Source: Takakia lepidozioides (taxonomy: Eukaryota > Plantae > Bryophyta). Taken from it: a stretch of DNA of 64,000 nucleotides. The notes below the pieces were generated by a model that saw only the letters and a list, made by a program, of their open reading frames with translations, did not search any database and was not told where the DNA came from. Position 1 is the first letter of the stretch, and the number at the start of each line of letters is the position of its first letter. The position numbers and the translations under genes are program-made. Below, piece by piece: positions 2,238 to 37,826 of this stretch. The DNA lies in the NCBI GenBank assembly GCA_030704615.1, contig CM060734.1, forward strand, positions 558,001-622,000, written 5' to 3'.

Positions 2238-2564
2238 TGTCAAGTTATTTTACCACAAGTATGAAACTAGCTAGGAAATAGCTAGCTTTTACATATTGAC
2301 ATTTGGGATTGGCCCAAGTGTCAATCCAGGGGTCAAGGCAGATTTAGGCCCTGGAGTGGTTATCTTCACGGCAAGCGCAGGAGGCTCATCTTTCTCGAGT
2401 TGAGCCTCACCGCGCCTAGCTATGGCGCCGTAGTGTGGATTCCCCATGGCGTGGGGTGCACTTGGCTTGACTTGTATTTGAGTGATGAGGTTATATATGC
2501 ATGAGTTTATGCTTCAGCTTTGTGAGCTCGCATGAGCTTGTGCTTGTATTCTTCTTCTTTATCA
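2238..2564 (+). repeat. Terminal repeat A (327 bp, TGTCA...TTATCA) of the DNMT-Gypsy
   Basis: Colinear end to end with 37321-37740. Shared blocks: GGAGGCTCATCT..AGTTGAGCCTC hairpin, GTGGATTCC, CTTGACTT, TGCTTCA..GCTTTG, terminal TTATCA. Confidence 0.75.
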
Positions 2565-2580
2565 CTCGAGAAAGATGAGC
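2565..2580 (+). promoter_or_regulatory. Putative self-priming primer-binding site
   Basis: CTCGAGAAAGATGAGC directly follows repeat A and is the exact reverse complement of 2384-2399 inside A. There is no TGG-starting tRNA PBS here. Confidence 0.65.
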
Positions 2581-3274
2581 TCGTATCTGTGAGTGCCAAA
2601 TACGAGTTAGTTGTAGCACTTGTGGTTTTTGCTTGAGGATGAGAGAAACCAGGTTGTTATGCAAGGAGCACCGTGGAGCCCTTGGTTGTTAGAAGCGGAG
2701 GCGATGTGGGTTGCGAGGTGGTAGACTTTGGCATTCGATCTTCAGCTTCAAAGATGAAAGCACCATGCTGCAGGTAATTCCAGAGCACCTTGATGGTTTC
2801 AGATTGTGTACATGCATGAGCAAGCACGATTGGGAAGATGACCGGTCAAGAGCAGGTTATAGTGGCTTTGGTGGCAAAGTTGAGAATTGGACTTGGGAAT
2901 GCGAGCTTTCATTGTGTGAAGGATTGCAAGACCAAACAAAAGGGCTGATTTGGCTTGGGGAAAATCAGTGCACTTTGTGGAGTATGATGAGATTGGGTTT
3001 CAATCTCGAGCTTCAGCATTGAGAGGGCTCTTGTCATGGCAAGAGCAGGGCTGGAACAGGAGCTAAGAGGTGCAGCAAGGCCATGGAATGTGCACCTAGG
3101 GTTTCAGAGCTTGGAAGAAGAGCTCTTGCACCACAAGATGAGTGTCTTGTGGCTGGAAATGTAAGCCTTAGGGTTTCAGGAGCTTGGCAAAGGCTGTGGA
3201 GTGCTTAGTCCTGTCTTAGAGAGCATCAAGGAGCCAAGGAGCCAAGATAGGGGGTTGATACCTCTTGTGTTTAG

Positions 3275-3665
3275 GGGTTGCATGTGTGGAGCATGTATTC
3301 AGCTCATTGAAGCTTCCATCTTCAAGCTTGGAGGGCAAGCAAGGAAGATGGAAGGGCTGACTTCCCTTATGTGAGGGCAATGCATGTATGGAGCATGCTT
3401 TCAGCCTGTTGAAGGCTTGTACTTTCAGGTTTGGGAGTGCAAGAAATGAAGGAAGGGGCTGGTTTCCCTGTAGGGCATGTGTGGAGCATGCTTTCAGCCC
3501 GCTGAAGCTTGTATTTTCAGGTTTGTGGGTGCAAGAAATGAAGCAAAGGAGCTGATTCTCTTATGGTGAGAGTGAGGCATGTGTGGAGCATGCCTTCAGC
3601 CCATTGAGGCTCTTGTTTTCAAGCTTTAGAGAGCTAGAACGGAAGGGCTAGGGCTGGTTTCCACT
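3275..3665. repeat. About 4 copies of a ~100-bp tandem repeat in the DNMT-Gypsy leader
   Basis: CATGT(G/A)TGGAGCATG recurs at 3281, 3383, 3476 and 3578. It is mirrored at about 63600-64000. Confidence 0.8.
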
Positions 3666-4111
3666 TGGGGTGAAATAAAAGCACTTGTAAGGCATATGTG
3701 AGTTGGGGTTTCAACTTCAAGCTTGAAGGGAGCACAACTCTTGAAGCAGCAGGTGCAGGGGCTAGATTAGGTGCAAAGGGCATGCTATGGTCAAGAAAAG
3801 CACGTAAATGAGTGCCTACAAGGGCTGGAAGTCATCCATGTTTGGTTAGTCGCCATAGGGATCAATGGCGCTGTTTTGTGAGTTAAAAGGAAACTTGTGC
3901 ACTTAGTTTCGGTTGCAAACATCTTCCTTTGGAATTAGAGCTACTATTGGTGGTGTGTGGGGGCCACAAAGAGCAAGAATACCTTGCTGATTTCCTCACA
4001 GCCGCCATAGCTCGGTGCAAAGAAGCCTAGAGTCCAAGAGACACAAACCCTAGCTTGGCGTGGCTAAACCCCTTGGAAAAATGGCTAAACTGTCATGAGT
4101 GGCCATGGATG

Positions 4112-4520
4112 GGGCTGTGACGGGCTGTGACAGGCTGTGATAGGCTATGATGGGTTGTGACGGGTTGTGACGGGCTGTGCCCTGTGGCCTGTGGGGCTGT
4201 GACGGGCTGTGACAGGTTGTGATGGGCTGTGAGGGGTTGTGACAGGATGTGGCCTTTGGGGCTGACCCCTGTGACCTGTGTAGGGCTGTGAGGGGCTGTG
4301 CCTGTGGCCTTTGGGGCTGTGAGGGGCTGTGACAGGCTGTGCCTATGGCCTTTGGGGCTGTGAGGGACTGTGACAGGCTGTGACCTGTGGCCTGTGGGGC
4401 TGTGACGGACTGTGACAGGCTGTGCCTATGGCCTTTGGGGCTGTGATGGGCTGTGATAGGCTGTGACCTGTAGCCTGTGTGGGGTTGTGACGGCTGTGAC
4501 CAGTGGTCTGTGTGGGCCTG
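4112..4520. repeat. GGGCTGTGAC-type minisatellite in the DNMT-Gypsy leader
   Basis: Many degenerate 10-bp units with higher-order blocks. The reverse-complement version lies at about 62650-63150. Confidence 0.9.
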
Positions 4521-5453
4521 TGCTAGTCTGTGGTGGCCCGTGTTGACATGTGGACGGCCTATGCTAACTCGTGGAGACACTGGTGGACTGCCTGAGGACT
4601 AGCATGCGGTCTTGAAGGCCAAATTTTGAAGCTCGTGGAGGGCGGTTTGAGGAGTATCTTCATGATATTTCCATGGTCATGCAAGTGAGGGAAGAGAGGA
4701 GAAAAAGAGTGTTGGGATGAGGGCATGCTGGGTTTAGGCATTGCTTTAACTTCTCTTCCTCGTAGTTTTCCACCCTCTCATTAGGCCAAGACCTTTCCAT
4801 AGGTGGAGGCAAGAGTCAGTCCGTGTTTGGGCTAGGGTGTCCTTGCAGGAGCAACACCGTGGAGATGTTTTTGGTGTGGGGGAGTTGTCATTTTGATTTC
4901 TTGTGTTTGGATCCCCTCCATACCTGCATGCTTGACTGTGCGCCATGTTAGTTTTGTGTGGGCGCTTGTTTTTATAGGTGATTGGTCCGGATTTGATCAC
5001 CGGCCAGTCCTAGAGCATGCTGTCGATGGTGAGGCTGGGGTGATGACCAGTCAGACTATCATTGTTTCTCCTGTGGTGAGGTTGGAGGTGATGACCAGCC
5101 AACCATAGGAGTGCTTGCGGTGGATGCAGGTGCAAGTGTAGGCTATGTTAGGAACCTAGTATTCCAAACCATAAGCCGCAACAAGTTCTCTACCCGGTTA
5201 CCTTGTGGAGAGGGGGTTAGGGACATGTTCATAACCGGTTGAGTGACAGTTTGTCAACAGGGAGGTGCCACTAGTTGCTGGGGACAGTGCCGGTTCAAGC
5301 ACTAGCGATACTAGTGGGTACACGAGACGAGGTGTGCGGTTTAGGCCACCTACACCTCATGTGTCTTCTACGGAAGGTTCTGATGCAGATTGTGAATCAG
5401 GAGGACTCACACCGGCGGTGCAAATTGTTTCCTTGCCATTGTTATGGGACACA

Positions 5454-8032
5454 ATGGACGAGATGTATGGAGCTACCAAGGGGCCACGAAGGTACTCTGG
5501 GGCGGTGGGCACCATCGAGTTGGATGATTTTATCGAAGAGTTTGATAGTTGGTGTGATTTGCAGCAAATGCACAATCCACAATTATTTACGCCTTTCATG
5601 GCATGGAAGGGGCTGTTTCAGCACCATGAGGGGCCACCTATGGATGATTACCATGAGTTCAGGTAGGGGCATGAGGTTGAGATTGAGGAGTGGAGGATGT
5701 ACTGGTCACCCGACTATGTCTCCATCACTAGGGGCACTAGAACCACGAGGGCAATGGCTACACCTGCCGCTGCACCGGCAACTTCAACATGCAACAGTGG
5801 GACTAGTGGGACTGGTGGTATGGTAGCTACAACGTCCACCCAAGCCACTACCGCACCAGCACCAGTACTTGTGCCTGCCTTCAACCCTATTGTGGAGTTC
5901 TTCGAAGAGTTGAGAGGGAACTACCAAGGGGTGAGGACAGAGAAGTTGCGGAGCTTGCAAGAGTTCCAACGGAAGCCTATTGAGAGCTTGAGGGAGGCTT
6001 TCACTCGCATGAGGCGCTTGATAAATGTAACCCAAGGGGTTACAGAAGCTCAGGCAGTCCAATTATGGTATGAGATATTGGACAAGGAGCTGAGGAAAAG
6101 GGTGCAGGATGCAACTCTCCTACAAGCGGCCCAACCCACCTTAGCAAATGTGTTTTTGCTGGCAGAGCGGATAGAGCTCAACATGGTGGAGGAACGAGTG
6201 GTCATGGTAGGATTTGCTAAGGAGACACCACGGGGTAGTGGTGCTCCTAGCCAACCACTACCTCAACGTGCTCAAGGCAACAAGGGGGCTCAGGTGAAGC
6301 TCAGGGAAGGACAGAGAGGACCTCAGATGCAGGGGTCTCTCCCTTCATTTGCAGGCCAACAACGGGCAGAGGTGGTGTATTGGACATGTGGAGGACCCCA
6401 TGTCAAGAAGGATTGCCCAGAAGGAGGCAAAGGGCCGGCACATGCACAGCCTGCACAGTTGCAGTGTGGGCATTGTGGCAAGCACGGGCATGGAGAGGCC
6501 CAATGTTATGGTTTGCATCCTGAGTTGCGCCCAGGCCAGTTCCAAGGGAACATTGGTGGCCGGGGGCGAGGTGGGGCAGCCCAGAGAAGACAAGGTGGCC
6601 AGGCACGAGGTGTAGGCCAAGGGCAAGCTCAACATGGCCAAGGATGCGGAGGTCAGGGTGTTGACCAAGGCATGGCCAACCGGCTTCAGCTGCTAGAGCA
6701 GAGACTCGCTGCCATGACTACAGCTCAGGTGGTACCGGCTCCAAGGCCGGATGGTCCACCTCCTGCTCCTGAAGGAGGAGATATGGGAGGCATGGGATTC
6801 ATGTGCGGAGCAGCACTACCACTAGTGCAGGTGGAGTCTGCTGCAGCCGTGACTCGAGGAGCAGCACGAGGTCCTGAGCCACAAGGTGCAGAGGTGGAGT
6901 TGGATCCACAGCGTGGGGAGGCAAGCCGTCAGGCTAGGCTTCCTCAGTCATTCACATTGGCGGAGACAGTGTCGACACCATCTATGGCACCTAGTTCTCG
7001 CCCGATTGTTACCGAGGCGGAGGTTATTATGCCATTGGGGAGAGCTACACGGGTAGCACCACTACCTAGTGTTGCCAAGGCTACGGCAGCTAGTGTGTTG
7101 CTAGGAGCGGCCACATCTGTGTGCCAGGCTCCATTGTTCTCGGCTACCATGATTGCGACGCCGGGGGTAAGACCAACTGAGGTGTTCAGGCTGGCAGCTA
7201 CACTCTGTGAGAGTGGGGAGGTTACTTCATCTTCTGCGGAGATAGTGAGAGGTGTAGTGCCGAAGGGATCCTCGGATTTGAGGGTCAAGACTGCCACGAC
7301 GGCGCCATGGCAAGCTGCAGCTGCCAGGTTGATGGAGCTGCCAGCTAGGCCAGCCATTGAGTGCGCCATGGTGACACCTGGAGTTGTCATGTTAGACAAC
7401 CATGATGGCATTTTCTGTTTGAGTGGACCGGCAGGCAAGAGGTATCGGCCACTGCGGGTCTTGTTGGACTCGGGAGCTCAGCCATTGATGCTGGGCAGAG
7501 CTGCTATTGCAAGCTTGGGCCTCACGGAGGCGGATATGGAGCCTTGTCTTTCCAGATACAGACATCTCTGGGAGGATCGGAGCAGGCTCGGGGCATGACA
7601 CGGCGTGAGTTGGCTATCAGACTACGGCCGGATCACCCTACAGATGGCTCAGTGATGCGAGTCAAGGCCATTGTGACAGACGCGGTCTCATACAATGTTC
7701 TGGTTGGTGGGGCAGTGTTATACCCCATGGGCTTCACCCTGGATTTTTGGGAGGAGTCAGCTTCCTATAGGCCTGGATGGCAGTCAGGGGAGGGCCGGCG
7801 TGTACAGCTCCCTGTGACGTTCATAGGAGGAGTTGCGGTTGCCCAGTGGGGCAAGATGCCGACACTAACAGCATTCACAGCTGCAGTGTGTTGGCCTGGA
7901 GAGTTGCATGAGGGCAACGCTCATTCAGAGGATGACACACCTCTAGGAGAGCAGGTTGACATGTATCGTATGGCGGAGTTGCCTGCCATGGTTGCTCAGA
8001 CTCCATTGTGGGGCTCGAGCAAGGATTTGTAG
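5454..8032 (+). pseudogene. gag: Gag plus aspartic protease of DNMT-Gypsy copy 1
   Basis: Gag-like segment FQRKPIESLREAFTRMRRL, CCHC knuckle, VLLDSGAQP. Premature TAG at 5664 and 8030; frameshift at about 7545. Confidence 0.85.
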
Positions 8033-8182
8033 CGGGTTGCTGATCGACGGGTGCAACAAGCCTGGGTAGAGGCTTTTGTACCGTCAGGAGAGGAGGACAG
8101 TGCGGGGATTGCACCAGGACCACCTCAGTTGTCACCATTGGACACCACCCCGATCGTGTGACATTATCCGGATGAAGGCAGT

Positions 8183-9115
8183 TGTCTTCGAGACTTGTTT
8201 GGCGGGATCAGCACCGGATTGGCTGCTGTGTTACAGGCAGGTGTACGAGTTCGGCGTTACATGTATGTGGAGAGGGATGAGACTGCACGACGCGTTTCAC
8301 TTCGCCATGTTGCTCAGTTGGTGCAGCAGTACCCTAAGTTGTTGCCGGTGTCTGCAATTCGTGGATATCAGCAGGCCTTGCCAGCAGACATTTCGTTGCT
8401 GGGGGCGCATGATTTGGAGCGGGTTGGCTCCATTGATCTGGTAGTGGCAAGTTGGCCCTGCCAAGGGCATTCATCAGCCGGGCATTGCAATGGATTGCGA
8501 AACTCGAGGTCGGGTCTGTTTTGGGAGATGATACGGGTTTTGCGCCACTTGCAGCTTCATCAAGCTGTATCTCCAGCATATATCTTGGAGAATGTGCCAT
8601 TGATGGGCGATTCTTGGGCCAGGGTGATGGCCAATGTGCATCAAGTCCGGTCGTGGCTTGGGTCAGCAGTGTTGCTAGATGCAGCTGCAGTGGGGTCACG
8701 GGCTCATCGTCCCCGGCTATGGTGGACTAACTTGATGCCACCCACACTGCTCAAAGCGTGCATTTGATGGGGTGCAGCGACCAACACACCTCACAGTGGA
8801 TAGCATTTTGGACACAAGGAGGCAGTCTCAGCGTGTGAGACACGATGACCGTTCACCTTTGGCAGTGGTCAACAAGGTGGGTCAACCACGAGCAACATTA
8901 CCTACACTGCTCAGCTTCACAGGATCGCATGCTTTCCGTGATAGTGGACCTCGCCTCCTGTGGGATGCTCAGTTGCAGCAGTTAGTGGAGCCTAATGCTG
9001 ACGAGTGTGAGCGGGCAATGGGTTTTACCATTGGTACCACGGCGGTGCCGTCTCTTTCTGAGGCATCACGTCGTCAGGTGTTGCGGCAAGTAATGGATCT
9101 CAATTGCTTGACCTG
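8183..9115 (+). pseudogene. DNMT3-like C5 cytosine DNA methyltransferase domain inside the Gypsy pol (copy 1)
   Basis: Motif I DLFGGI, II YVERD, IV SWPCQG (catalytic Cys intact), VI ENV, VIII DAA..HRPRLWWTNL, IX ERAMGF, X region, all in linear order. One frameshift at about 8760. Confidence 0.92.
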
Positions 9116-9519
9116 GATTATCAGCTTGGCTATGGTTGAGCAACGCAGAGTGCGGAGTACACTTCCCTCGCTGGTCTCTCTGCCTACCGAGACGGTACAG
9201 GCAGTGAGTGGGGCGAGCATGTGAGGACCACGGGGTGCAGGCATCCATGGCATACGTGGGAGGTGCTCGAGGTTCAGAGGGAGTTGGCAGCCAAGTGACG
9301 GTGATGGATGAGGTTGGGGATTTTTCTCGGGTTGAGGAAGTCCTCGAGGATGAGATGATGGGGCAGGATGAGGCCTTGTCATTGACTGAGCGGGTAGGGA
9401 GTACTGCTAAAGAGGTTGCAACATAGCAACCACTGGACGCGTCCTCTATCTCTAAGCCCACTGGACTTAAGGTTGCAGTTACGGAGGACAATTGGGAGCC
9501 TGACATTGGACCCATTGTC

Positions 9520-10920
9520 ACCGGAGGAGAGAGACGACGTATACGACGGTTCCTGAGGGCTTACATGAATTGCTTTATTTTCAGTTTGAAGGATTTGGGA
9601 GCATTGAAGGGTCAAGAGATCCGTATTGAGTTGGCCACTGACACGTCAATCTTTCGGAGACCCTATAGATACAGTGACATGGAGAGGTCTTTGATTCAGA
9701 TGAGGACTCAAGATCTTTGGTAGGCTGGTTTGGTGGAACTTTTTGGTGGAGAGTATGCTTCAGCCACAGTGATGCCAGCCAAGAAGGATGTCTATGGCAA
9801 TTGGACGGAGAGACGTATGTGCGGTGATTACCGGCCTGTAAATCATCAGACCAAGTCCGATAAGTATGCCATGCCAACACCAGAGGAGATCTTTGATGCC
9901 ATTGGGCATGCTAAGGTCTTTAGCACTTTGGATTTACTATCCGGATATCACCAGTTGCCGATCAAGGAGGCGGACAAGCAAAAGACGGCATTCTGGGGAT
10001 CAATGAGCACGGCAAGGATTGCCTATATCAGTGGCGGTTCTTACCATTTGGGCTTAAGAATGCTCCTGCAGAGTTTTCAGAGAGTCATGGATACGATTCT
10101 AGCAGGGGTGGACTTTGCTCGGTGCTACATAGATGACATCATCATCTTTAGTGCTACGGTGGAGGAGCATGAGAGACACCTTCAGATGGTATTGGAGCGC
10201 TTGAGAGCGCACGGATTGAAGTTGCATCCGGGGAAGTGCAAGTTTTTCCACAACCAGATTGAGTATCTGGGTCACATGATATATCCTGGAGGATTGGGGG
10301 TACAGTAGACTAAGGTAGAGGCCATTGCACAAATTCCACGCCCCACGGATGTGAGCCGAGTTCGAGCTTTCATGGGGTTGACAAACTATTATAGACGGTT
10401 TGTCAAGGGATTTAGTGCCATTGCAAAGGCTCTAATCAAGCTGACCAAGGTGGACCAGGAGTGGCAGTGGGAAGATGAGCAGGAACGAGCTTTTCAAGAG
10501 CTCAAGGCGAGCTTGGCCTCGGCGCCTATCCTAAGACGACATATCAGGGGGCGTCCCTTTCAGCTGCATACGGATTGGAGCATGCTGGGGCTTGGAGCGG
10601 TGCTCACACAGGTGGATGATGAGGGAAGAGAGTTCGTAGTGGCTTATGCTAGCCGCTCAAACAACGCTGCAGAGGCTAAGTACAACTCATATGAGGGAGA
10701 GTGCTTAGCTGCAGTGTGGGCCGTGGCACACTTTCAGGTGCTATCTATACGGCAATCTCTTCACCTTTGTCATGGATCACCAGCCACTCAAGTGGTTGAT
10801 GGAGTCAGACAAGCTTACGGAGAAGCTTGCACGGTGGGCACTCATACTCCAGGAGTATGACTTTCAGGTTGTGCATCAACCGGGTTTGGTCAATCGGGAT
10901 GCGGATGGATTGAGTCGCAG
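9520..10920 (+). pseudogene. pol: Reverse transcriptase and RNase H of DNMT-Gypsy copy 1
   Basis: RMCGDYRPVN, FSTLDL.SGYHQ, PFGLKNAP, YIDD, LHTDWS, DHQPLKWL, RWALILQEYDF. Several stops and frameshifts. Confidence 0.93.
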
Positions 10921-11723: not shown

Positions 11724-12074
11724 GGATTGCCTGAGGTAGGTCTTGAGATTCCAGCATTGGAAAATGTTTGTGGGTTGGAATGAATGAATTACTTTGCAAA
11801 AAAAGGCTTTGCTGTTAATATTCAATTCTCTAGCGGGCGATCTCTTCATTCCAAAATCATGTCCTCCATCCTAAACCATCCACAAACCTTCCATTGTTCC
11901 TCGGCCGGAAAGAATATTAATGTGGGGGCGATGAAGAGGGTTCAAAAAATAAGGACATAGGCGACAACCGATCCGTGGAAATGGGGGGGGGGGCACGGAA
12001 TTAGGGCCTGTACACGTGGATGCTTGCTGACGTGGCGTGAGCCTAGCCAGGCTCACGCGCAAGCATTCCCCGTC

Positions 12075-13509
12075 CACTTATTTGTGGGTGATACGGGATA
12101 GCCTTTCGGTGTTTGATGGAAAATGCTGCCATCATTTCCTCGATGACATCGTTGATGAAGTGAGACCCCCGGTCACTCACTATCTCCTTGGGACATTCAA
12201 ATCTGGATATGATGTAATTCGTAAATGAAGGCCGCTGTCACTTGAGCGCTAGCTTTTTTTACCCCCTTTGCTTTTGCCCACTTGGTCAGATATTCGGTGG
12301 CTACGATGATGTAACGATTTTGGCGACTTGATGCGGGGTGTACTTCCCCTACATAGTCGATCCTCCACTTCTCAAACAGAGCAACATAGAGGGTGGGTAC
12401 TAACGACATTCCAAGCCTATTATCCTTTTTAGCGTACCTCTGGCAGGAGTCACATTTTTGCACATACATGTGTGCATCCTTGAACATGGAGGGCCAGTAG
12501 TATCCTGCCCTTAAAACTTTTTGCACTGTGAGCCGCCCTGCAAAGTGACCTCCGCACATGCTATCATGGGCCGACTCTAAGATATGGGGAGCCTCCTTTG
12601 GAGTGACGCATCGCCTCAAGAGTCCATCCAATCCCCTTCTACAAAGCTGCCCTCCCACCAGGGCAAACTTCATGCTACGCAATCGAAGTCTTCTTCATGC
12701 GTGTAGATCCAATCATGGAGGGTATTCCAGTGTACTCAAGTATTGAGCAATGTGCTCATACTATGGAGGAACCGACTCTTTGGAGAACAGGAATGCATCC
12801 GGAAAATCATTGTCAATAGGCTCGTCCCCTGTCTTCTCTGATAATCGCGAGAGATGGTCGGCTTGAGCATTAAGCCTCCCTGGCTCGTAGACTACCATGT
12901 AGTCAAATTCCTGGAGTAGAATGACCCACCGTGCTATCCTTCCTGTCAAGTCGGGTTTGTTGATCAAATATTGCAGTGCCATGTGATCAACAAAAAATGT
13001 GAATGGGGTCTCTAGTAAATAGTGCCGATATTTCTTTACGGCAAAAATCATCCCCAGAGTCTCCCGCTCTGTGGTGCTGTACCGAGTCTCAGCAAATGTC
13101 AGCTGTCAACCAGCAAAAGATATTGGATGATCATGGCCATCAGCATCTGGTCGACAAATGGCACATCATACTGCCACTATTGAAGCATCAACGTACACAT
13201 GAAAGGGCTTGTTCTAATCTGGAGTTGCCAAAACTGGGGCTGTCACCAAGCATTGCTTGAGCGTCTCAAAGGACTCTCGACACCCTGCATCCCAGGAAAA
13301 TACTTGGTTCTTCTTCAATAAGCGAGTCAGAGGTAATGCCTCGGCTGCATACTTGTCCATAAATTTCCTATACCACCCTGTGTGGCCAAGGAATCCTTTT
13401 GCCTTAGAAGATGTCTCGGGTGCGAAAAGTTTGACTATGGCGCTTACCTTAGCAGGATCTGTCATCACACCATCTCGGGACACGATGTGCTCTACCAACA
13501 GTCCATGTG
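12075..13509 (-). mobile_element. pol: Degenerate pol fragment (RNase H-integrase) of an unrelated Ty3/Gypsy element
   Basis: FLGHTGWYRKF, FFVDHMALQYL, RWVILLQEFD, integrase HHCC (HDSMCGGH...LRAGYYWP...CDSC), core IVATEYLTKW. Confidence 0.88.
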
Positions 13510-13775
13510 TGTCGCGCACCTCACTTTGGTAACTCCCCCTTTAAGTCATAATTACTCGCTTTGATGGGCGCGCCTAACTCCCAAACTGGCCGCCCGGCCA
13601 ACTCGAAGCTTCGGCTGCTCACTGGGGCATAACGGTCCGCCTCACTCCTCCACAAGACCTCCACCACTTTGGGCCTAGTGGAAATTCCCTTTGGTAGTTG
13701 GCAATCCGGAATAGCTTCCCACACCTTGGTCACTTTCCGGCTCGCACGCTTACTCACTAGCTTTTGGTCACCCAA
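13510..13775 (-). mobile_element. End of an element of the same family as the 58049-58752 insertion, cutting the Gypsy pol fragment
   Basis: Starts TGTCGCGCACCT and is a reverse-complement match to about 58505-58752. Confidence 0.75.
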
Positions 13776-14340
13776 CGACGCAATGGCGTGAGCGTACGCT
13801 CACGCAGGAGTGACATGGCGTGAGCGTCATGTCAGCATGCTGATGTGGCGGCAAATGATGATGTGGCACTGTCCGTCATCTGCCACGTCAGCATTAACAT
13901 GCGCCGCCTATAACCGAGGATGGTCCTATGACCGTGGAATTAATGCAGGGAATCTTGCCTAAATAGAATCAAGACTACCATGAGGCCTACAATTGTAGCT
14001 TCCAACATTGTGCAATTACAAATGCTTGTTTCACTTTTACAATTACGAGGACGAGAAAATATCCTCACAAAGTGTGCGCCATAGAGGCTGCCACGGGAAG
14101 ACCTTCCTCCCTCCTCAAATAACAATGAGAGTTAGGATCATCTTCAAAAGATGATTGTAGTGCATAGCGACAGCAAGACATGTAGACTTCGAACGGTGCA
14201 ATGACAAATGTGCTTTTAAAAGTTGCCACTCAGAGCTCACTTAGTATAGTTGGAGGCCATATCATTGCACCGCTAACGAATTGATGTGAATTACACATTT
14301 CAAATCATGGTCGTCCACATACCACATTGCATAGTTGATG

Positions 14341-20338: not shown

Positions 20339-20688
20339 GTGAGCATGTCCTTAACACTCCCATGAATTTGCTTTGAAGATGAAGAAACCGACCATCCTTA
20401 GAATCTCATGTAGGTGCAAAGTGATTTGAAATCAGAGAGGACCAAACAAGGGACTTATTTGATAGTGGATTGCAGAAGAGGCACAATTGATAAAATCAAG
20501 CACTGCTAATGAAGGCTCCTTCTTCAACACATTTCACCCTGTTTTTGCCTCTTATCAAAATTGACCCTAAATTTCCATGTTGAATTTTGCAAGTTAGCTG
20601 GTTGAGTGAATCTAGTATGGAGTGACTTTGACATGATACTGCCAATGTGACAATAGGAAAGTATCCAAAAACAGGTAATAGATTGTAC

Positions 20689-23600
20689 TCATAAGACGTT
20701 GTTTGCCGTAGCCTTGTGGCCATTGACCCCGCGCCCAGTTTGAGCGGGAACAAAAGGGACAGAACCTACCTCTGTCAGGGGCTGACGTTGGTAGTAAGAC
20801 TTACCTCCATATAAAGAATTAATCCGGGTTTTCCAGATATCCTCTAGAAATCCCTTCACACAAGCATCAATCTGCTGTGTGTGATTTGCCCAAAAACTAG
20901 GCCTCAGGAGGGCCTGGGCTTTTGGCTCAGCCTCGAGACTTTCAAAGTTGGTAAACAGGGGTACAGGCACAATTCCCTTAATAGATTTGAAGAGAGCGTC
21001 TCTTTGGTGAGAGAACCCCGGACAGTGTATCAGAAAATGAATACTGTCTTCAGATTGCCCACACGACGGGCAATTGCACTCTCCCTTTCCTCTCTGCTTC
21101 TGTTTGCTGTTCAAAGGTAGGCTTCCTGCCCTGAGTTTAAATTTCAGTCTAGTGCCGAGAGTGGGTAGACCCTTGAGGTCATCCAAGATGTCCTCCCCCA
21201 CGTCACAGACTGGAAACAAGTTCAGGGAAGTTTTCTGCCTAACTTCATTTTCATCAGACAATCTCATGGCAACAGACATGGCTGAGGACACGACAGCCTC
21301 TAAGTCAGATTTATCCAGCAGGGTCAAGACTTGCGGATCCAGGTCCAGGTCCTTGAGGATCTCTTCTACTCTCTTCTGCCAGGACTTAGCCTGTTTGACA
21401 GGGCGGTCCTGTTTCCAAGATATAGAGTCGATTAACTTAGGATATCTGGTGTTGGGCATATGTTGCAGCTGACCCCACCATCTGACCTTGAATTCATCTC
21501 GTCGGGAGCTTAAGGACGGAATGCCAAACTCACCCCGAACAGCCACATTGGCTGTTTTGGAGCATGCTGACATACACTCCTTAAGCACCCCCACTTGAAT
21601 GGATTCTAGAGACTTAGCCTGGTTGGAGTTATCAACCCATATAGCAGATCCGTACTCCAAGGCAGGTCTAATAATGCGACAAAGCATGGTTTTCTTGACC
21701 TCAGAGTTGACCCCTCTGCAGTGGAAAAATTTAGTGAGCCCCAGAGCTTTGCCCTTGCCAGTTTGAACAACTTTCCGGATATGTGCATCCCAATTACAAT
21801 TGGAGGAGAACTCAACGCCCAGGTAAGTGTAGGAAGGGAGGACCGGGATCTCTTGGCTACCCCACTGCCACTTAAGATCACTTCCTCCCTCTCCTCTGTC
21901 GTTGAATGCTACCACTGCACATTTGCTGACATTAGCCTCTAGCCCCCAAAGATCAAAGTATCTCTTCGCGCAATCAATCAACTCCTGGAGATTGGTTGGA
22001 GTCTCCCCTATGCCTGCGAAGTCATCCGCAAACATAAGGGCTGGTATGGTGGTATCACCCACCCTTAACCCAAATCCCTCACTTTCCACATCCTCGAGGA
22101 GTTGATTGATGAAAACATTGAAGAGCAGAGGGGAGAGAGTACATCCTTGAGCTACACCTTGGTCTATGTCAAAGAAGTTGGACTTCTGTCCGTTAACAGT
22201 GACACAGCTTTTGGTGTGAGCATACAAGTTGTGGACAACTCTCCACATCTTTCCCTTGATCCCACAAGACCAGAGGCGTACCATAGGCCATCTCTCCACA
22301 CTGTGTCATAAGCCTTTTTGACATCCAGGAAAAAGACATAAGTGGGTTTCCCTTCTTTTTTCCTTCCCTGGATAATCTGGCTTAGAGTGAAGATATGATC
22401 CACACAGCCCCTGTTTCGCCGAAAGCCAGCTTGGCCTTCGTGGAAACAACTTCTAGACTCCAGATCAACCTCGAGACGAGTACTTATAACTCTGCAGAAT
22501 GTCTTGCCAACAGCATTGAGGAGCGTGATGCCACGGTAGTTCCCCGGTTCTTCTCTGTCACCCTTCTTGTATAGATTGACAATGACCCCCTTTCGCCAGC
22601 GAAAGGGGATCATTTCAGTCTTCCAGATAAGGTTAAAGAGGAGAACTAGGGCCTCTATCATGGGATCGCCACCGTGCTTGATAAGCTCGTTGACAATACC
22701 ATCAGGTCCACCAGCTTTATATCCATTTAAATGTTCAATTGCTTCCACAATCTCAGAAGAACTAATGGGAGCATTATAAGCCATTGAAATATACTCCAGT
22801 TCATCAGGGCTGTTTTGAATCATAGGAACAGTTTTTCCAACTGTGTCCCTCCATTCAGCAGAAGACCCCTCACTGTTAGACCTAGAAGTTCTGCCAAGGA
22901 TACTGTAGTGAGTTTCAAAGGTTTTGACAATGTCAACCGATGAAGTCACCACTGCACCTTTAGTAGTCTTCAGCGCTTGTACTTGCTGACCGTTTTTCGG
23001 TTTGTACAAACGTTGAAGGGCCAACCAGAATTTCTTGTCATTACCACCATGGTAGTTTGAGTTTATTTCACTGTATAACTTGTCCCAGTATAATTTCTTC
23101 TGAGACCTAACAAGCTGATTGATATCTTTACGGAGCTGGTAGTACCTCGCCCACAATTCTCTGTTGGTTTCCAAATTGCAGCACTCTTTATAGAGGGCTC
23201 GTCTCTCAGCTATCTTGAGTTTAATCTCATTAGTCCACCAATTAACTGCTCTACCGCAGACAATTAGTTTCCTCCCAATGATCTTGTCAGCCACGGAGGA
23301 AACGAAACTCTCCCAAGAGTCCACTGCTCTTTCGACTTCATTTCTTGCGTTAACAGAGCATGACTGAAGTTCTTGGAGCGATTGGACAAAATGAGGGAGA
23401 GCCTCTTGCAAGGCCTGGATGTACTCAGCCTTGACCTCCTCATTGTGGAATTTTTCTATGCGCCACTTCCGAATCGAACGTTTCACAGATCTCTTGGTGG
23501 TGGGAAAACACCTTTTGATCTCAGTCCAAACCAGGAAGTGGTCAGAGGTACCAATATCAGTTCTGTCGATCAACACATTGGCACACTGGGGGAACAAAAT

Positions 23601-25217
23601 TTTGTCCATTATGATATAGTCCACAATGGAACGTTCCCCAGTTTGGGGTTTCTCACGAGTCCACTGCACTTGGTCACCTCTTGTCCTGTTATTCAAGGTC
23701 AAAAGCTGAAGCTCTTCTAGACAGTTAATTAACCGTCTGCCATTAGAATTCAGCTCGTCCTCACCAAAAGGTCCAATGATATCGTCCTGATGGATCCCTT
23801 TGCCCACCCGGGCATTGAAGTCCCCCAATAGTACCACCTGACCTTTGGCAAGGAACGAAGCACAGTCCAGCTTTACATCTTCGAAGGCCTTGTCTGCATC
23901 AGCACTAAGGGTCCCCTCTGTGGGCATGTAAACACAACCAACAAAGAGGTCCTTTGTACTCATGCCGCCCTTCAAATTCAGTTTTAGCCAGATACTATGC
24001 TCGTACCTCAAACCCTTGTTGATAATTTCACAATTGTCAAACAAGAAATCACGGACAAAGAATCCGACCCCTTTTTGACCGCGTTTGGCAGAGGCTGCCT
24101 TGAGAGTACACATCTTACCTGCCCATTTATAACCAATGACATCTCCAACCAGTTTATCCGACGTTTCCCATGTTTCTTGCCCAGCACAGATATGAATATC
24201 ATTAGTCCGAAGAACTTGTCCCACTTCAAGTTGTTTCCTTTGGTTGGTCAACCCTGAGAAGTTGAAAGTGGCCAGCCGCAAGCCAGCCCTTTGCGTGTGA
24301 ATTGTTTGTCGTCTAGGTAGCTTGTGATTGCTCCTGGACGGCCAACCGTTCTGCAAAGGGGGGACAGTTACCCCATGTGTAGATTTTGCTTGTCTTGTGT
24401 AAACTTTGAGAATTGGTAAACCATTCAGGGTACCAAATCTTTCAGTTACACGACGCACAGGCTCCGCACACATAGGGGCAGATTGTCCGTCAGACTGCTT
24501 GGGGACAATTACCCCGTGTATAGATTTTGCTCGTCTTGTGTAGACTTTGAGGATTGGTAAACCATTTAGAGTACCAAATCCTTCAGGCTCTGCACACTTA
24601 GAGACAGATTGTCCATCTGACGGCTTGGGGACAATTACCCCGTGTATAGAATTTGTTCGTCTTGTGTAAACCTTGAGGATTGGTAAACCATTCAGAGTAC
24701 CAAATCCTTCAGATTCAGGACGTTCAGGTTCTGTACACTTAGGGGCATCTTGTCCTTCTGGCTGTTTGGATTCAACCTCATCCAGAGCATCAAACCGATT
24801 AGAAACTCTCAAGTTGAAGTTGTTGCCCTTGGTTGTCTTCCTAGAGCGCCCCATTGAATCACCAATGTCTAAGACCGCTCTCCAGCCAGTCAAGGGACGA
24901 ACTTCTTTGAGATTGAATTGATGCGGGACTCTATTAGAAGCACTTTTGGTCATTGCAACCTTCAACGTACCCCTGTTATCAAGTCTCGAGATGGTACCAT
25001 TAGCCATGAAATCCAAGCCTAAGCTAGAGCATGTAGTTTTAAAGGACACATCGTCCATCCTGGGATTCACCCCAAAAACTACACATGAAGCCCTAGATTT
25101 GGCATAAGTAACCAATTCCCAGGGATCACCCTGAGGAGTGTTGATGTTGATAGGAGCTAAATTTTTGATTGTTTTCGCAGGCCATAAGTTTAAGCACAGG
25201 AACCAACCCGAGCCCAA
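20689..25217 (-). CDS. LINE-A polyprotein (APE endonuclease, RT, C-terminal CCHC), with one frameshift at about 22278
   Basis: GDFNARVG, SDH, YRGITLL, QAGFR, QGCTLSP, FADD, CPSC..EDSIHFLIHC. The frame is continuous at this site in copy 2. Confidence 0.88.
24350..24745 (-). repeat. Three in-frame repeats of about 41-44 aa (FGTLNGLPILKVYTR...HGV.VP) upstream of the LINE-A endonuclease
   Basis: Visible in both the protein and the DNA. Confidence 0.85.
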
Positions 25218-25556
25218 GTGCCGAGTATGCTAGACAGAGCATACGACTGCCCAATTTGGGCGGAGGGGCTGCCCCCAAGCGGTAGGAGTCCGCTTGTTAC
25301 CATTCAGAGATCACACTCCAGGGAGTTGCAGGGAATGGCCCGTGTAGGCATATTCTAAAGAGGGAAAGGCCCCAAGCTTTCCAACTAAATCCAATGCACT
25401 ACCTTACCTGAAGCAAAGCGCTTCAGGTTGAAACAAACAAGGACACGAGGTCACAAGGCCGGCATTTAGTCACAGAGACATTCATGTACTCCCGTTTCAA
25501 GTCCACCCAATGTCAATAGGCTTCCTAGAGGACAGGGAGAGAAAACAGGTAATAGA

Positions 25557-26195: not shown

Positions 26196-26261
26196 CCACC
26201 TTCCCCGGTGACTCTCTCTCTCTCTCTGGGGTGAGTTTGGCATACCTTAAGCTTTTCACAT

Positions 26262-26645
26262 GATGAATTCAAGGTCACATGGTGGGGTCAGTTGAATTGC
26301 ATGCCTAATACCAGATATGGTAAGATATTTATAATCAAATATATTTCTTCGAAGGGAGACCGCCTGTTAACCAGGCCGAGTCTTGGCGGGAAAAGGTAGA
26401 TGAGATTTTGAAGAATCTAAATGTTAATCCTGATGATCACGAATTGACCCTACTGGATGAAGCTAACTTGGAGGGGCTTTGTCCAAAGCATCCTCTGATG
26501 CCCTCACACTGTCCGCTGGAAATAAAGTTAGGCATAAAACCTCCCTAAACTTGTTTTCAATCTGTGACATGGGCAAGGACCTTAAGGACGATCTCAATGG
26601 CCTACCTGCCCTCGTCACTAGACTGAAATTTAAACTCGGGGTGGG
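26262..26645 (+). mobile_element. Old diverged fragment related to the LINE-A 3' region
   Basis: Aligns by eye to about 42975-43335 (GATGAATTCAAGGTC...CTAGACTGAAATTTAAACTC). Confidence 0.7.
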
Positions 26646-27641
26646 AAACCACTAGTGCTAGAATCCCATGGCGCCCAAAGTAACTTGCATGAATGTTGCT
26701 GAAATCTCACAAGCACTCCTCCATAAGGGAACTTGTCAAAATGATGGTGCTATGGGATTTTCAGGCACAAAGGTCTACTGTGGGAGTCATGAAGGCTTTT
26801 GAGGAAAAAAGATCCATGAAATGTCAAGATCATCAAGGCAGCTGCAAAGGAGAAATGACTAGGGATGGGTGACTCAACCGACAGACGTGACTGGTCTTTG
26901 AAACTGGTTGATTCCGTTTGCTCCCATTTTCTTCCTTCTGTTAATTCCGATCGAGTATATTATGGTTGTTCCATTGCAAATTGGGTAGCCAAAAATAGAC
27001 TTGGTTGCTTGATAGGCGGTGGCAATACAGATGGTGACATTTCTTGTGTCAATAAAGTTTCTTTTGTGCATTCCTTGTTGTGATTTATCTTGGTAGTCTA
27101 CTTTCATCGATGTGTGCATGTCTTATTTATCTATGCGACATTGAGTAGTAGGTTATGAATGTAATGAATGACACTAATTGGCTCCACAACACCATGCATC
27201 AATGATGTGATTACATGTAGGAATTAATGTAAATGACACATGTCGGAATTTTAGAATGACACCAATCCATAGGCGAATACAATAGATGTCAAACATTTCA
27301 CATCCATGCACCATCCCCTGCACACCTGGCAGTGCCCACGGTAAGCACGTGTCTCAAAAGTGTGGGTTACATCACACAAACACTTGTCCAAGGTGTGATA
27401 TTCGACAGTGGAACATTCCACACTGACACTGGGCTTTGACATGAGCAATGGCTTATCTCACACGGCGTCCATGGCGTTTTCCACAGAGCCACCTAAGAGC
27501 CATGGCTGTCCACAGGTGTCCGAAAGGACAGGTCTGTTCTGACACCCCTGTGGTCTGTGAACTGGGGTAGATCCCACAAGAAAAATTGTGGAAAAAGCTG
27601 TGAAATGTGAAAAAACCTATTTGTTTTTGTTTGTAGTGCGT

Positions 27642-30639: not shown

Positions 30640-33600
30640 CGTGCTGGCCACCCAAGCGTACTCTGGCTTTACCCAGCGGTCTGTCGTTTTACCCGGGCAG
30701 CCGCGACCAGCGGTCCGTCGGCCCGCCCTACCACGTGCTGCCACTCTGCGTTGTGACCAGCAGGTAACCAGGATGGTCCGGACCAGTGGGTAAGAAATTA
30801 AGCGGGGGGGGTCTTAGCTAGGAAAATACTTTTGAATGGTTCTTGCCTTGTTCGATTGAGGGAGTGTTGAGATGTTGCCTCCTTAGGCTGGGTTGGGAAT
30901 TTGAATGGAAGGCGAAGGTCTTCGAGGCCTTCGTTTTGGTATGTCATAGGTGGTCAGATCGGAAATCGGCCGCTTGTCTCACACCGAGAGACCTTGCTCA
31001 CAAAAAGCGGATGATAAGTACAAAGCTTTTGGGAGGGGTAGAAGGGGGTTTGAAGTGGGAGAGGGAGTCATTTCCGGTTGCACCCAGCCTTAAAATGCAC
31101 TTAGATAAGGTGGAGGAACCAACAGCGGACCCACCAAAATATATTATTCATATGTGAGGAGCGCTTTTTGAGGAATGTGGAATAGTGGATGGTTAGGAAT
31201 GGATGGATGAGCGGTGGATGAGATAAGCAGTATTTCATCTGCAGAATGGATGTAGGACGGATGAAGGCAGGATGATAAATGCAGTTTTTCATCCATTGCA
31301 GGGATGAATGGTGGATGATATGTGGATGATAAATGCAGTTTTTCATCCGGTATTTTAACAAGTCATTTTAGCTCTAGGGGGGTTTGAACCTGAGATCTAG
31401 AGGCTAGGGGCTATGTATTAAAGGCTTAGGGGATTGTTTGGACCTATTAGCCTATGGTCCCACATCTTGATAATGGTTTTTGGGCAATGAGAGGGGGTTA
31501 GAGAATTATCTAGAGGCCAAGCCATGGATCATTGGAAAGCTTAGATGAAGTCCTACCTTATGCCTATTTTTCTAGAATTAGTGAATTTTCAGCCTTAGTA
31601 TTTAATTTTGAAGTGGGTTTTCTGTTTAGAAAATTACCAAAAAATAGGAATAGAGGTAAGTAAATCTAGGATTTTTATCTCTATTTCCTAATTATCATAG
31701 CTTGCCTAGGATAGTATTTTTTCCATTTCTCTTATCAATATCTAGTGCTAAAAAATAGCCAAGGGCCCTAGCAGCTAACGAAAAAATGGGATATTGTCCA
31801 GGTAAAGAGCTTTTTGGCTAGGCTAGGGTGTGCTCTCCCCTTCGGATAGCGGAAACGTAGGCGACCCCTTTGCACACACGTGCGATCCGGGGGCGCGTGT
31901 TGGTGAAGCAACCCAGACCTAAGCGGCTTGCCCTTAACGCTTTCGGCAACAGTCAATCCAGGTGAAGAAGATCTTCTGGGGACACCGACAAGCTCCGGGG
32001 TGAAGCCGTGTTAACCGTAATAAAGAAGACTTGGAAGGCAATCAGCTAGGAGTAGATTCCGTAGGAGACAACAAACGAATTATGCCCTGTGAGCGTAGGA
32101 GTTGAAACCTGCGTTTGCTGGTAGCTTAAGATAGCGAGAGGTAGTTCCCTCCATCGACCGTTGACCCTCCGCCAAGCTTAGTGACACACTTCACGGGTGG
32201 GCAGTTCTTGAGCCCAACCCATCTCGTCGCCGGACTCCAGGCCCCGGATCGACGTTAGCCTTCGTTTTCCCCGCGATTGTTGTGCGCGCGGCGAGGCTCG
32301 TCATATTAGTAGTGCGTCTGCCCATGGTCGTAGGTTGCTACTAACGGTGATTAGTGGTTGGATTTCACATCAACACGGATTGCTAAGGTTCGAAATGGTA
32401 CGCCCTGAACCTAGTTTTTCTTTGTACCAACGTGCATATCTTTTTGTAGGGTCTTGCCCTATCAAAAAGATAGACCTAGATGGTTGTTTAGGTTGTTGTT
32501 AATGTTTTCGAGCGATATTCTTGCTGTATAAGGATGCAGTATATGTATACAAAGCTCATTGGACAGAGAAGGCCGAGTTACTACGGCAGAAAACCTGCAT
32601 GGTCCGGTCATTGAAGAGGCACCATCTATTAAAGTGCTAGTATCTCTAGTCCGTCTTCAGTGATGGTCACAGTAGTGTCATCCCAACTGCCTATGCGTCC
32701 AGTCGTTGAGGTGCCTATTGTGGTGCCTATTGGATTGAGACCCTTGCGGATTCCTTCCAGTTTACCATATATTTTTGGAGAATCCCAGGAGAACCCTGAA
32801 GGCCACATTCAGAACTTCATGCAGGTATGTTGTTCAAATCAGACAGTGGATAATGCTTACTAGCTTATTTGGTTTCCCACCACTTTAAAGGGCAAGGCGT
32901 TGACCTGGTACTGGCAACAGCCCAACGATCATTTATTGTTTGGGACCAAATACGCGATGCGTTCATAAATCGATTTCGCGTTGTGCATCAGTTTACAAGT
33001 GTCTTAATGGCTTTGGCCAGAATTCGCCAAGGACCTACTGAAGAGGTGGCTGACTTTGAAGTCAAATTTCGAGAACTTATGAGGTTCCAAAATCCACTTA
33101 CTCCTTTGAATGATGCAGTGTTGAAAGATTGTTTTCTGATGTGGTTTGAGAGAGGCCATTCATTTTTATGTTTTGCAGCAGAAGCCTGCTACTTTGGTGG
33201 ACGCCATTACCAGCGGGAAGGAGTTTGATGATATATATCGACAAGTTCAGAGAGCGAAAATGCCCGAACTTGCGCTACTTTCCTATGTCGCAATGGATCC
33301 GGCTAATCTACCAATGACAACGGCAACAACAGCCTGTCCAGTATACACTAACTCTTTTCCAGCTCCACCTTTTGATTACCACATTGAGTCCATGGGTCCA
33401 GAGGAGGCACGAATGGGTCATATGGAATCTAAGATATCCTCATTAATGAAGACGATGGAATCAGTGGCAATCAATGAGTGTTATAGGTCACCAGGTGACT
33501 AACTATGTGGCACACAGAAATGTAGCACAAACAGACCCAGACTTGGGTGAGCTTTGGTGTTATCTTTGCAAAATCTTTGGTCATTCTTCAGACAATTGTG

Positions 33601-33930
33601 CTAATGATCAAGAGGGGCATTCAACCAAGTATCTAATCCTCCAATGTTGAGATGTTTTGATCAGGAAAATATCGATCATTGTGAGAAGTGTGGTATTTCA
33701 GGCCACAAGGTGGAGACTTGTTGGAAAGACACGATCTGTAGCCATTGCGGGAAGGTCGGTCATCCATCGGATAAGTGCAGAAGGAGACTCAAAGAGATTA
33801 AATGATCAACTTTTGTAATGCAGCAAGAGATCCACAAGAACAAGCAAAGGCACATACCCGGTGTCCGGACCAACATCATGTTGTCTGGTTGACATGATGA
33901 TGTATCTTCACATGTGCTATCTGCACATGC
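29350..33930 (+). mobile_element. 5' part (LTR/leader and degenerate gag) of another Ty3/Gypsy element; boundaries approximate
   Basis: Gag at about 32740-33800: ENPEGHIQNF, FPTTLKGKALTWY, WDQIRDAFINRF, and three CCHC knuckles (CYLCKIFGHSSDNC, CEKCGISGHKVETC, CSHCGKVGHPSDKC). Long non-coding leader upstream. Confidence 0.6.
30603..30639 (+). repeat. Poly-G tract
   Basis: About 36 G with one C interruption. Confidence 0.9.
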
Positions 33931-36838: not shown

Positions 36839-36973
36839 TGCATGTTGTGTGAGTCTGCTAGAGGGGCAGCCACCATGCTGGTGTGTGATCAATGCTCTAG
36901 AGGTTGGCATATGGGATGCTTGACTCCACCTCTTGAGATGGTTCCTGATGGGGATTGGTTATGTCCGCATTGC
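36839..36973 (+). other. PHD finger (C4HC3) at the integrase C-terminus
   Basis: CMLC..MLVCDQCSRGWHMGCLTPPLEMVPDGDWLCPHC, stop at 36980-36982. Homologue at about 57775-57918 (-). Confidence 0.92.
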
Positions 36974-37237
36974 ATTGGATAGTGAGAGTGGATACAACCA
37001 TGGAAGGCTAACAAGAATGCAAGGCCAAGCTACTAGGAGACCAACACACGAGATCCTGACTCAAGTTCACAGATTGCAAGACGGCAACTAACGATGGGGT
37101 TGCTCTTGTACCCGCCTCTTGGTCTATAGAGTTTGAGTACAATAGGGACAGTGATAGAGGACTTAGTACGGCTGTGGCTATTACATCTTGTAGCTATCTG
37201 GAGTTAGAGGGACCTAACCACCAGCTAGGGGGGCGAT

Positions 37238-37826
37238 TGTGGTATAGCTTTCTAGGATTGTGTGCTTAGTGTGGTGGACAGCGATGTATGTTGTGGCACG
37301 ATGCTTAGGTGCACGACAGCTGTCATGGTTTTAGTCATGGTTATCTAGAATTACCTATTCTAGTTAACTAGGACATTTTAGATATTTATATTTATATTTT
37401 GTGTGTTGGGACTTCATTTGGTCTCACATGCCAAGTGAGGTGTCGAGCCTCACTTGAGACATGGAGATAGGTTTTCCCCTTGTGAGTGTTGAGGAGGCTC
37501 ATCTTCTTGTAGTTGAGCCTCCATGAGCTTCTTTCACCTCCATAGCTCTAGGTATTGAGAGGGAGTGTGTTGAGGGTTTTGTAGGGTGGATTCCTTTAGC
37601 AAATGTGCCCTTGACTTGACTTAGTTTATGTGATAGAGTGGATTTCACTTGGAAGGACTATGACTTGTTCTTCATGTGATTGCTTCATGCTTTGAGAGCT
37701 TTCATTGTCTTCTACTTCTCTCATTTCTCATCTCTTATCATTGTGGTATAGCTTTCTAGGATTGTGTGCTTAGATTGTGTGGTGGACAGCGATGTATGTT
37801 GTGGCACGATGCTTAGGTGCACGACA
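37238..37826 (+). repeat. 3' terminal structure B1 (37238-37318) - GC - A (37321-37740) - T - B2 (37742-37826)
   Basis: B1 and B2 are identical apart from a 4-nt indel and both run TG...GACA. A is homologous to 2238-2564. Confidence 0.85.

Follow-up and report, generated by a model that had tools for sequence, protein, structure and literature searches.

A Ty3/Gypsy retrotransposon family with a DNMT3-like methyltransferase between protease and reverse transcriptase in Takakia lepidozioides

Retrotransposons with a cytosine methyltransferase of their own include KnitGypsy-Dnmt3 of the charophyte alga Klebsormidium nitens, a Gypsy element with a Dnmt3 domain and DIRS-like repeats (de Mendoza 2018, PMC5890265). 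In this analysis we describe an element in 64,000 nucleotides of the bryophyte Takakia lepidozioides (GenBank assembly GCA_030704615.1, contig CM060734.1, positions 558,001 to 622,000 of the forward strand), a stretch hereafter called the window. The window element is a Ty3/Gypsy retrotransposon family with a DNMT3-like C5-methyltransferase (MTase) between protease (PR) and reverse transcriptase (RT). It is of the kind described as KnitGypsy-Dnmt3; the land-plant hosts, a conserved in-frame stop and the signal for self-priming appear to be new. Statements on published systems refer to the portions of the cited texts that were covered.

KnitGypsy-Dnmt3 and the window family share an unpermuted, intronless Dnmt3-like domain within a Gypsy element, as well as DIRS-like repeats. 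The arrangement A-coding-B-A-B is given in the same paper for SymbioDIRS, and in the window family such split repeats are seen in four loci (L041, L072, L076 and L079) and at the 3′ end of the copy called C below. A K. nitens protein, GAQ93235.1 (P0120; not confirmed as the paper's own copy), has a zinc knuckle, a protease and then the MTase, the same PR-then-MTase order as in the window family, and belongs to the same retroelement clade; an earlier note on this DNA, made from the sequence alone, had mentioned methyltransferase-bearing retrotransposons of dinoflagellates and charophyte algae. GAQ93235.1 ends 12 residues after the MTase domain, whereas the paper speaks of a 'Pol polyprotein ORF' (open reading frame) for KnitGypsy-Dnmt3, whose domain is under purifying selection with Ka/Ks <0.2. 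The window family differs in its land-plant hosts, in apparently far more copies and in an MTase that precedes a conserved stop. The covered text on KnitGypsy-Dnmt3 contains no self-priming signal, 4-bp target duplication or junction palindrome, and Marchantia and Physcomitrella are not mentioned in the main text of that paper.

Other described systems resemble the window family in part. SymbioDIRS-Dnmt3 of Symbiodinium also combines a Dnmt3-like domain with split repeats in a retroelement, but it has a tyrosine recombinase and a DIRS-type RT where the window family has a DDE integrase (IN), a Gypsy RT and 4-bp target duplications (PMC5890265). Tf1/Tf2 and the Tf1/sushi-Tcn1 group have a primer site that complements the upstream repeat and no tRNA site, as in the window family (PMC7175516, PMC6317226). 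Compared by description only, that group has ordinary long terminal repeats (LTRs) and, in Tcn1, a chromodomain, whereas the window family has a PHD, an MTase and split repeats; no methyltransferase is mentioned for the group in the text covered. DAM-LTRs and EpiLTRs are likewise Ty3/Gypsy elements with captured DNA methyltransferases, but these are adenine methylases or a DNMT4-sister cytosine methylase, occur with chromodomains and are absent from Streptophyta (bioRxiv 10.64898/2026.05.21.726589). That 2026 preprint counts 'streptophytes (Gypsy-DNMT3)' among the cases already known, and Sarre 2025 (PMC12344493) cites it as 'streptophytes'; neither gives a species. The covered text of Yaari 2019 and Neumann 2019 contains no such elements. 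In the literature within reach, to which most subscription journals, figures and preprint supplements did not belong, neither land-plant members nor the stop nor self-priming is described for the Gypsy-Dnmt3 kind.

The methyltransferase domain as a family trait

Copy A runs from 2238 to 10919 on the + strand in the order Gag-PR-MTase-RT-RNase H (RH), as mapped by six-frame translation, Pfam and motif mapping. Its MTase, at 8174-9140 (+) with a frameshift near 8752, matches PF00145 at 45.7 bits (E 7.6e-12), above the cut-off of 22; among the copies of the window, RVT_1, rve and PHD, which the earlier note had proposed to check, were also matched. On the same strand, motif I (DLFGG) lies at 8192-8206, II (YVERDE) at 8264-8281, IV (WPCQG) at 8453-8467, VI (ILENV) at 8582-8596, VIII (RAHRPRLWWTNL) at 8699-8734, IX (ECERAMGF) at 9003-9026 and X (QVMDLNC) at 9087-9107. 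The catalytic PC, ENV and RxR are present, with motifs I-X in linear order. The MTase of copy B, at 60626-61550 on the − strand, has several frameshifts and keeps motifs II, IV, VI, VIII, IX and X at 61487-60659; a 23-nt deletion took the start of motif I, so that LFGG is absent, and the second motif VIII arginine is a glutamine. The full motif set that the earlier note had seen in both copies therefore holds for copy A and not for copy B.

By sequence and predicted structure, the domain is DNMT3-like and unpermuted, not DRM-like, as had been proposed. The best solved match by sequence to the relative P0002 is DNMT3A (E 6e-12), against E 1.6e-4 for DRM2, which aligns over 136 residues only. 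The fold comparison used a predicted model of P0002 (72% identical; predicted local distance difference test, pLDDT, 93.5), whose top fold match is DNMT3A (E 1.4e-19). Its Z score is 28.9 with DNMT3B (root-mean-square deviation 2.6 over 278 residues), 27.6 with DNMT3A, 25.8 with M.MpeI, 22.7 with M.HhaI, 22.5 with DNMT2 and 9.5 with DRM2. Animal DNMT3A and DNMT3B have the same fold and motif order as the element domain, but identity is ~20-25%, and the element domain is without PWWP and ADD and forms a long separate branch. Plant DRM is circularly permuted whereas the element domain is linear, and DRM was rejected on this order from I to X. The ESM Atlas returned only the generic family. In quick trees, midpoint-rooted and with rows that did not include plant DNMT3, DRM, DNMT1 or Dnmt5, the domains of green-lineage retroelements form one branch, apart from animal DNMT3 and from 2-3 prokaryote- or virus-type rows. 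A recent phage capture was rejected, since the nearest phage methylases are only 24-31% identical. Two DIRS-type RT proteins, P0040 and P0041, also carry a related C5 MTase, and P0040 has an additional Dam-like adenine methylase (PF05869), that is, two methylases in one ORF.

The domain search returned 47 proteins, including 21 from Marchantia polymorpha, two from Calypogeia fissa, two from Sphagnum and three from Closterium. Relatives in Marchantia, Calypogeia and Sphagnum are up to 77% identical; land plants, for which the earlier note knew of no characterised family, do carry it. A metagenome scan confirmed 133 stretches, of which 80 were kept and 66 remained once two with fewer than 200 MTase codons and 12 near-duplicates had been dropped. 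These loci are closely similar to Sphagnum proteins and have the order Gag-PR-MTase-RT-RH-IN-PHD. PR lies upstream of the MTase in 51 of the 55 with room for it and RT downstream in 44 of 51, at interquartile gaps of 405-406 nt (PR-MTase) and 553 nt (MTase-RT). The MTase and RT-RH trees share 16 of 19 strong splits over 67 elements, with a Spearman correlation of 0.70 (0.90 for the 13 of the PR-MTase-RT layout); six proteins, one chimera and cluster duplicates, were left out, and near-copies inflate the agreement. Because the two trees agree even so, a one-off insertion is excluded and the MTase is a family trait, which upholds the central claim of the earlier note. A nested insertion was likewise rejected on the fixed spacing and the agreement of the trees.

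A wider search gave 269 clusters at E 1e-30 or better, and the best 150 of these 269 fall into two layouts, with the MTase either before RT or between RNase H and integrase. The first comprises the window family, Closterium and Klebsormidium GAQ93235.1. The second, RNase H-MTase-integrase-PHD, is found in P0099, P0201, P0235, P0055, P0202 and some 50 others, with the chlorophytes Scenedesmus and Chlamydomonas eustigma among the hosts; the literature covered does not mention it. Both the MTase and the RT trees separate the two layouts, the second being a branch of its own. The window family and the Klebsormidium element fall within the same retroelement clade (SH-aLRT 98-100); the trees neither establish monophyly of the PR-MTase-RT layout nor reject it (p-AU 0.225). 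From contigs of run X1 came 37,409 pieces, spread over all 30 bins of 7400-10900. They show that there are many divergent copies, but the figure does not count copies and gives no ranking of domains. An RT-based scan of viral contigs gave no matches, and an MTase scan of viral contigs gave three distant loci at 27-34%, excluded from the counts.

The catalytic cysteine is kept in 65 of the 66 loci and the motif VI glutamate in 59. The second motif VIII arginine is kept in 41, the rest having glutamine or a stop, as CpG decay would give. Against the 66 loci, the MTase of copy A has a masked pN of 0.20 and a saturated pS of 0.72, hence a pN/pS of 0.28, compared with 0.22 for RT and 0.27 for Gag. 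Between copies A and B, dN/dS is 0.35 for the MTase, 0.43 for RT and 0.24 for RH, again with masking, which biases the values downward and was applied in a second pass after an unmasked one had been inflated by out-of-frame codons. These ratios suggest that across lineages the MTase is constrained about like the other domains, and its identity is 70-74% where synonymous sites are saturated. Neutral evolution, which the earlier note had named as fatal to its claim, is thus not what the range of 0.28-0.35 indicates, although this compares with Ka/Ks <0.2 in the KnitGypsy-Dnmt3 paper and constraint is weaker than on RT in the decayed moss-type copies.

Split repeats, self-priming and the conserved stop

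The left terminal repeat A of copy A, at 2238-2564 (+), begins TGTCAAG, ends TTATCA and scores 87 against repeat A2 of copy C (shuffled mean 26, maximum 44 of 200). The 3′ end of copy C, at 37223-37826 (+), consists of a polypurine tract (PPT), B1 at 37238-37318, GC, A2 at 37321-37740, T and B2 at 37742-37826. Its B1/A2 junction reads CACGACA GC TGTCATG. Distant moss-type loci have this B/A junction in identical form. It is near-palindromic, holds one CG and two CWG sites, and its halves correspond to the termini of the inserted element. Copy C accordingly ends B-A-B, copy B has just one B at its end, and the A with which copy A begins is diverged. Ten loci retain both ends: four are A-coding-PPT-B-A-B (the four named above), six are A-coding-PPT-B (L019, L025, L033, L044, L046 and L048), and none has B before the first A. 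Their target duplications are of 4 bp, perfect in six and with one mismatch in three, the remaining locus having a damaged left end. The element ends are thus A and B, and two identical LTRs are not found. Copies with 88-92% identity in their coding regions have strongly different terminal repeats, B being 81-85 nt in copy C and about 165 nt in copy B (57351-57514); several subfamilies therefore coexist.

Directly after repeat A, the primer-binding site (PBS) of copy A at 2565-2580 (+) has no TGG start of a tRNA-type site. It is perfectly complementary, over 16 of 16 nt, to 2384-2399 (+), the predicted self-primer and predicted RNA 5′ end; none of 100 shuffles gives two matches, and the fold has a z of -7.3. 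A different 12-mer pair stands at a shared distance in 16 of 24 loci and reaches at least 10 of 12 matches in 14 of 24, where controls average 7.3-7.8. The complement points to self-priming like that of Tf1, which primes by a complement inside its upstream repeat (PMC7175516). At L058:13289-13570 and L059:5538-5819, a short A-PBS-B remnant misses the whole coding region and is possibly a non-autonomous derivative.

In copy A, an in-frame TAG at 9424-9426, followed by CAA CCA (9424-9432, +), lies between MTase and RT, ~95 codons after motif X, and parts Gag-PR-MTase from RT-RH-IN. The position given by the earlier note, inside the polyprotein between PR and RT, is thus right as to order, but the polyprotein is divided. 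The stop is conserved: TAG or TAA followed by CAA C is present in 47 of the 48 loci that cover the site (the other 18 of 66 do not cover it), copy B has TAA CAA CCA, and in Marchantia and Calypogeia the ORFs terminate at the corresponding place, 74-81 residues past the MTase domain. Copies A and B match CAR-YYA, the readthrough consensus of tobacco mosaic virus (PMC2194720). From this context, RT, RNase H, integrase and PHD are probably made by readthrough of the stop. A contig of run X12 (RNA only by guess) covers 9054-10896 with no break, which speaks weakly against a splice across the stop. With the MTase placed before a stop that is probably read through, the enzyme is likely to be produced in Gag-level amounts, far exceeding those of RT and integrase.

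The copies in the window and their surroundings

All family copies within the 64-kb window are dead, and the search for intact ones raised in the earlier note came to nothing for both of its copies, A and B. The Gag region of copy A, at 5454-7376 (+), starts with a methionine at 5454, contains one stop at 5664 and matches the N-terminal part of Marchantia ORFs, with 49% identity over 703 columns (tblastn) to P0004, which is Marchantia Mp4g09160. The aspartic protease follows at 7377-7780 (+), with LLDSGA at 7461-7478 and a frameshift near 7547; in relatives, PR gives weak Asp_protease_2 matches. The Ty3/Gypsy-type RT at 9490-10302 (+; PF00078, 83.5 bits) has YIDDI at 10126-10140 and is broken by a stop and frameshifts, and RNase H occupies 10303-10919 (+; PF17919, 99.4 bits). 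There copy A stops short, with integrase and 3′ repeats missing. Its damage includes stops at 8030 and 8159, the frameshift in the MTase and further disruptions of RT and RNase H. Tandem arrays, which copy B shares, occupy 3279-4500 (+) within the long 5′ untranslated region (UTR), with a 102-bp unit at 3279-3662 and 10/41-bp units at 4110-4500.

Copy B, at 57351-64000 (−), leaves the window within its 5′ UTR and ends with its single B repeat at 57351. What remains is the 5′ UTR, MTase, stop, integrase, PHD, polypurine tract and B; gag-PR is gone, RT/RNase H almost wholly so, and a foreign insertion at 58044-58750 splits the integrase tail. Copies A and B are 89% identical over 7850-9576. A third copy, C (33937-37826), overlooked in the earlier note, spans RT to PHD plus the 3′ repeats. 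Its RT, RNase H, DDE integrase and PHD cover 33937-36976 (+), the PHD finger lying at 36833-36973 (PF00628, 45 bits); it is 5′ truncated downstream of the expected MTase position and 92% identical to copy A in RT/RNase H. Decayed gag-like sequence at 32700-33800 (+), upstream of copy C, has no match to the Gag of the MTase family, and copy C may sit inside another element. A Copia-type RT at 37959-38993 (+) adjoins its right end. The Ty3/Gypsy assignment follows from the order PR-RT-RH-IN and the DDE integrase, and the 4-bp target duplications lie within the 4-6 bp of that group. DIRS, Ngaro and PAT elements were rejected, as rve and Integrase_H2C2 are present and no recombinase family is among the Pfam matches; the relatives scanned with Pfam have a PHD but no chromodomain match.

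Elsewhere in the window, a 42-nt unit based on a near-perfect 22-nt palindrome occurs six times at 36-570, with a spacing of 81-136 nt. An unrelated Gypsy element with RNase H and integrase lies at 12073-13777 (−), and 238 nt beside it match the insertion in copy B at 89%. Long interspersed nuclear elements (LINEs) with endonuclease and RT are found at 20677-25229 (−), 41499-43781 (+), 44846-48672 (−) and 26228-26650; two of them, inverted relative to each other, share 98% identity over 2.3 kb and are therefore young. The only host gene among the ORFs scanned is a single-ORF ferredoxin-thioredoxin reductase variable chain at 51964-52650 (+), best matched in Sphagnum (65%) and Physcomitrium (62%; three matches). 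A 115-bp tandem repeat at 56030-56341 has 2.7 copies that are 97% identical.

Possible roles of the enzyme

On balance we favour, from the layout of the element, a role in the particle: made at Gag level and packed with it, the MTase would methylate the element's own new cDNA, so that the copy arrives methylated. The first reading frame, Gag-PR-MTase, ends at the conserved stop, and RT-RH-IN-PHD would be added by readthrough; the MTase would enter particles at Gag level and methylate cytosines of the new cDNA, and the new copy, premethylated and resembling host repeat DNA, would escape sensing or nucleases. The RNA would start inside repeat A and prime itself as in Tf1, the functional LTR would be B+A, and the cDNA would carry B+A at both ends. 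These ends would be joined, giving an A2/B2 junction, and the integrase would cut the internal, near-palindromic B/A junction of the end-joined form. A second transcript start, on the 3′ side, would be retained in A-coding-B-A-B alone, making it the one form able to go through another round of replication. In yeast, related SymbioDIRS-Dnmt3 enzymes show de novo CG methylation (PMC5890265).

A number of observations weigh against this role or parts of it. The closest tested enzyme, that of KnitGypsy-Dnmt3, gave no methylation in yeast, a result its authors call inconclusive (PMC5890265). In eight of the 24 loci the best primer match is not at the common position; of these, L009 has the same 12-mer 13 nt closer. 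In 44 of 48 loci the stop is followed by CAA CCC, which departs from CAR-YYA by a single base; splicing is the main alternative to readthrough, and another form of bypass is possible. Closterium and several algal-type relatives run through without a stop, so expression at Gag level is not needed in every lineage. The unmasked dN/dS between copies A and B is 0.57. Among common changes shared by moss-type loci, the nonsynonymous/synonymous ratio is 0.61 for the MTase, compared with 0.21 for RT, 0.16 for RH and 0.13 for the integrase core and close to the 0.45 of Gag and 0.41 of PR, in a singleton-versus-shared test blurred by recurrent CpG decay; this apparently weaker constraint counts against a strict need for the enzyme in every recent lineage. 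Finally, since the metagenome loci were collected by their MTase, any copies lacking it would have been missed.

Action in the nucleus is an unlikely alternative, in which the MTase would modify the insertion site or genomic copies once inside the nucleus, silencing the element itself or seeding heterochromatin, with the integrase PHD as its guide. The ADD domain guides animal DNMT3, and a PHD ends the integrase both in the window family and in the algal layout; with the stop between them, however, MTase and PHD would be made as distinct proteins. Methylation at CHG and CHH is present on KnitGypsy-Dnmt3 copies (PMC5890265), and C-to-T-type differences between copies A and B are higher at CG (0.10) and CHG (0.08) than at CHH (0.035). 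Such decay is nonetheless of the kind that host methylation causes in any plant repeat, and methylation of the Symbiodinium elements is independent of DNMT carriage (PMC5890265). Distinctly less probable is that the MTase serves as a switch, a methylated B/A junction escaping the integrase cut and yielding the viable A-coding-B-A-B rather than the dead-end A-coding-B. The identity of the junction in copy C and distant moss-type loci would fit, as would the co-occurrence of split repeats and a DNMT here and in Klebsormidium (PMC5890265) and the division of the ten complete loci into four and six with none beginning in B; but recombination between B1 and B2, or collapse in short-read assembly, also explains A-coding-B.

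That the domain acts on RNA, or serves as a non-catalytic, nucleic-acid-binding part of the particle, we hold to be highly improbable. Its predicted production at Gag level, like that of a structural protein, and the inactivity of the Klebsormidium domain on DNA in yeast (PMC5890265) speak for such a part, whereas the catalytic residues are kept across lineages and the fold is nearer DNMT3 (Z 28.9) than DNMT2 (Z 22.5). Hardly credible, finally, is a mere passenger, a captured or nested gene in neutral decay. Both MTase-bearing copies in the window are indeed broken, and constraint within moss-type loci is weaker than on RT, but this reading is largely refuted by constraint, tree agreement and spacing: the spacing is fixed, identity stays at 70-74% at saturated synonymous sites, Closterium and Klebsormidium have the domain in the same position, and the nearest phage methylases stand at 24-31% identity.

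The purpose of a cytosine MTase in a retrotransposon has been open since 2018, in part because the hosts known so far are experimentally difficult. The family occurs in Marchantia polymorpha, with 21 annotated proteins in a model that has methylation mutants, and the question is therefore testable. For the favoured role in the particle, the stop ahead of RT leads to the prediction that each particle holds the enzyme in Gag-level amounts. An integrase element that primes itself and inserts via an internal junction would replicate by a route that the literature covered does not describe. In its boldest and improbable form, the proposal is that an old green-plant lineage of integrase retrotransposons, abundant in bryophytes to this day, loads every Gag with an MTase and that methylation of the cDNA picks which of the two identical internal junctions of an end-joined intermediate the integrase opens. 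If true, split repeats and captured MTase would belong to a single mechanism, and Marchantia and mosses would have in the element a source of de novo methylation that has gone uncounted. A Marchantia methylome paper counts five host methyltransferases (PMC5784723), and the element-borne MTases come on top of these.

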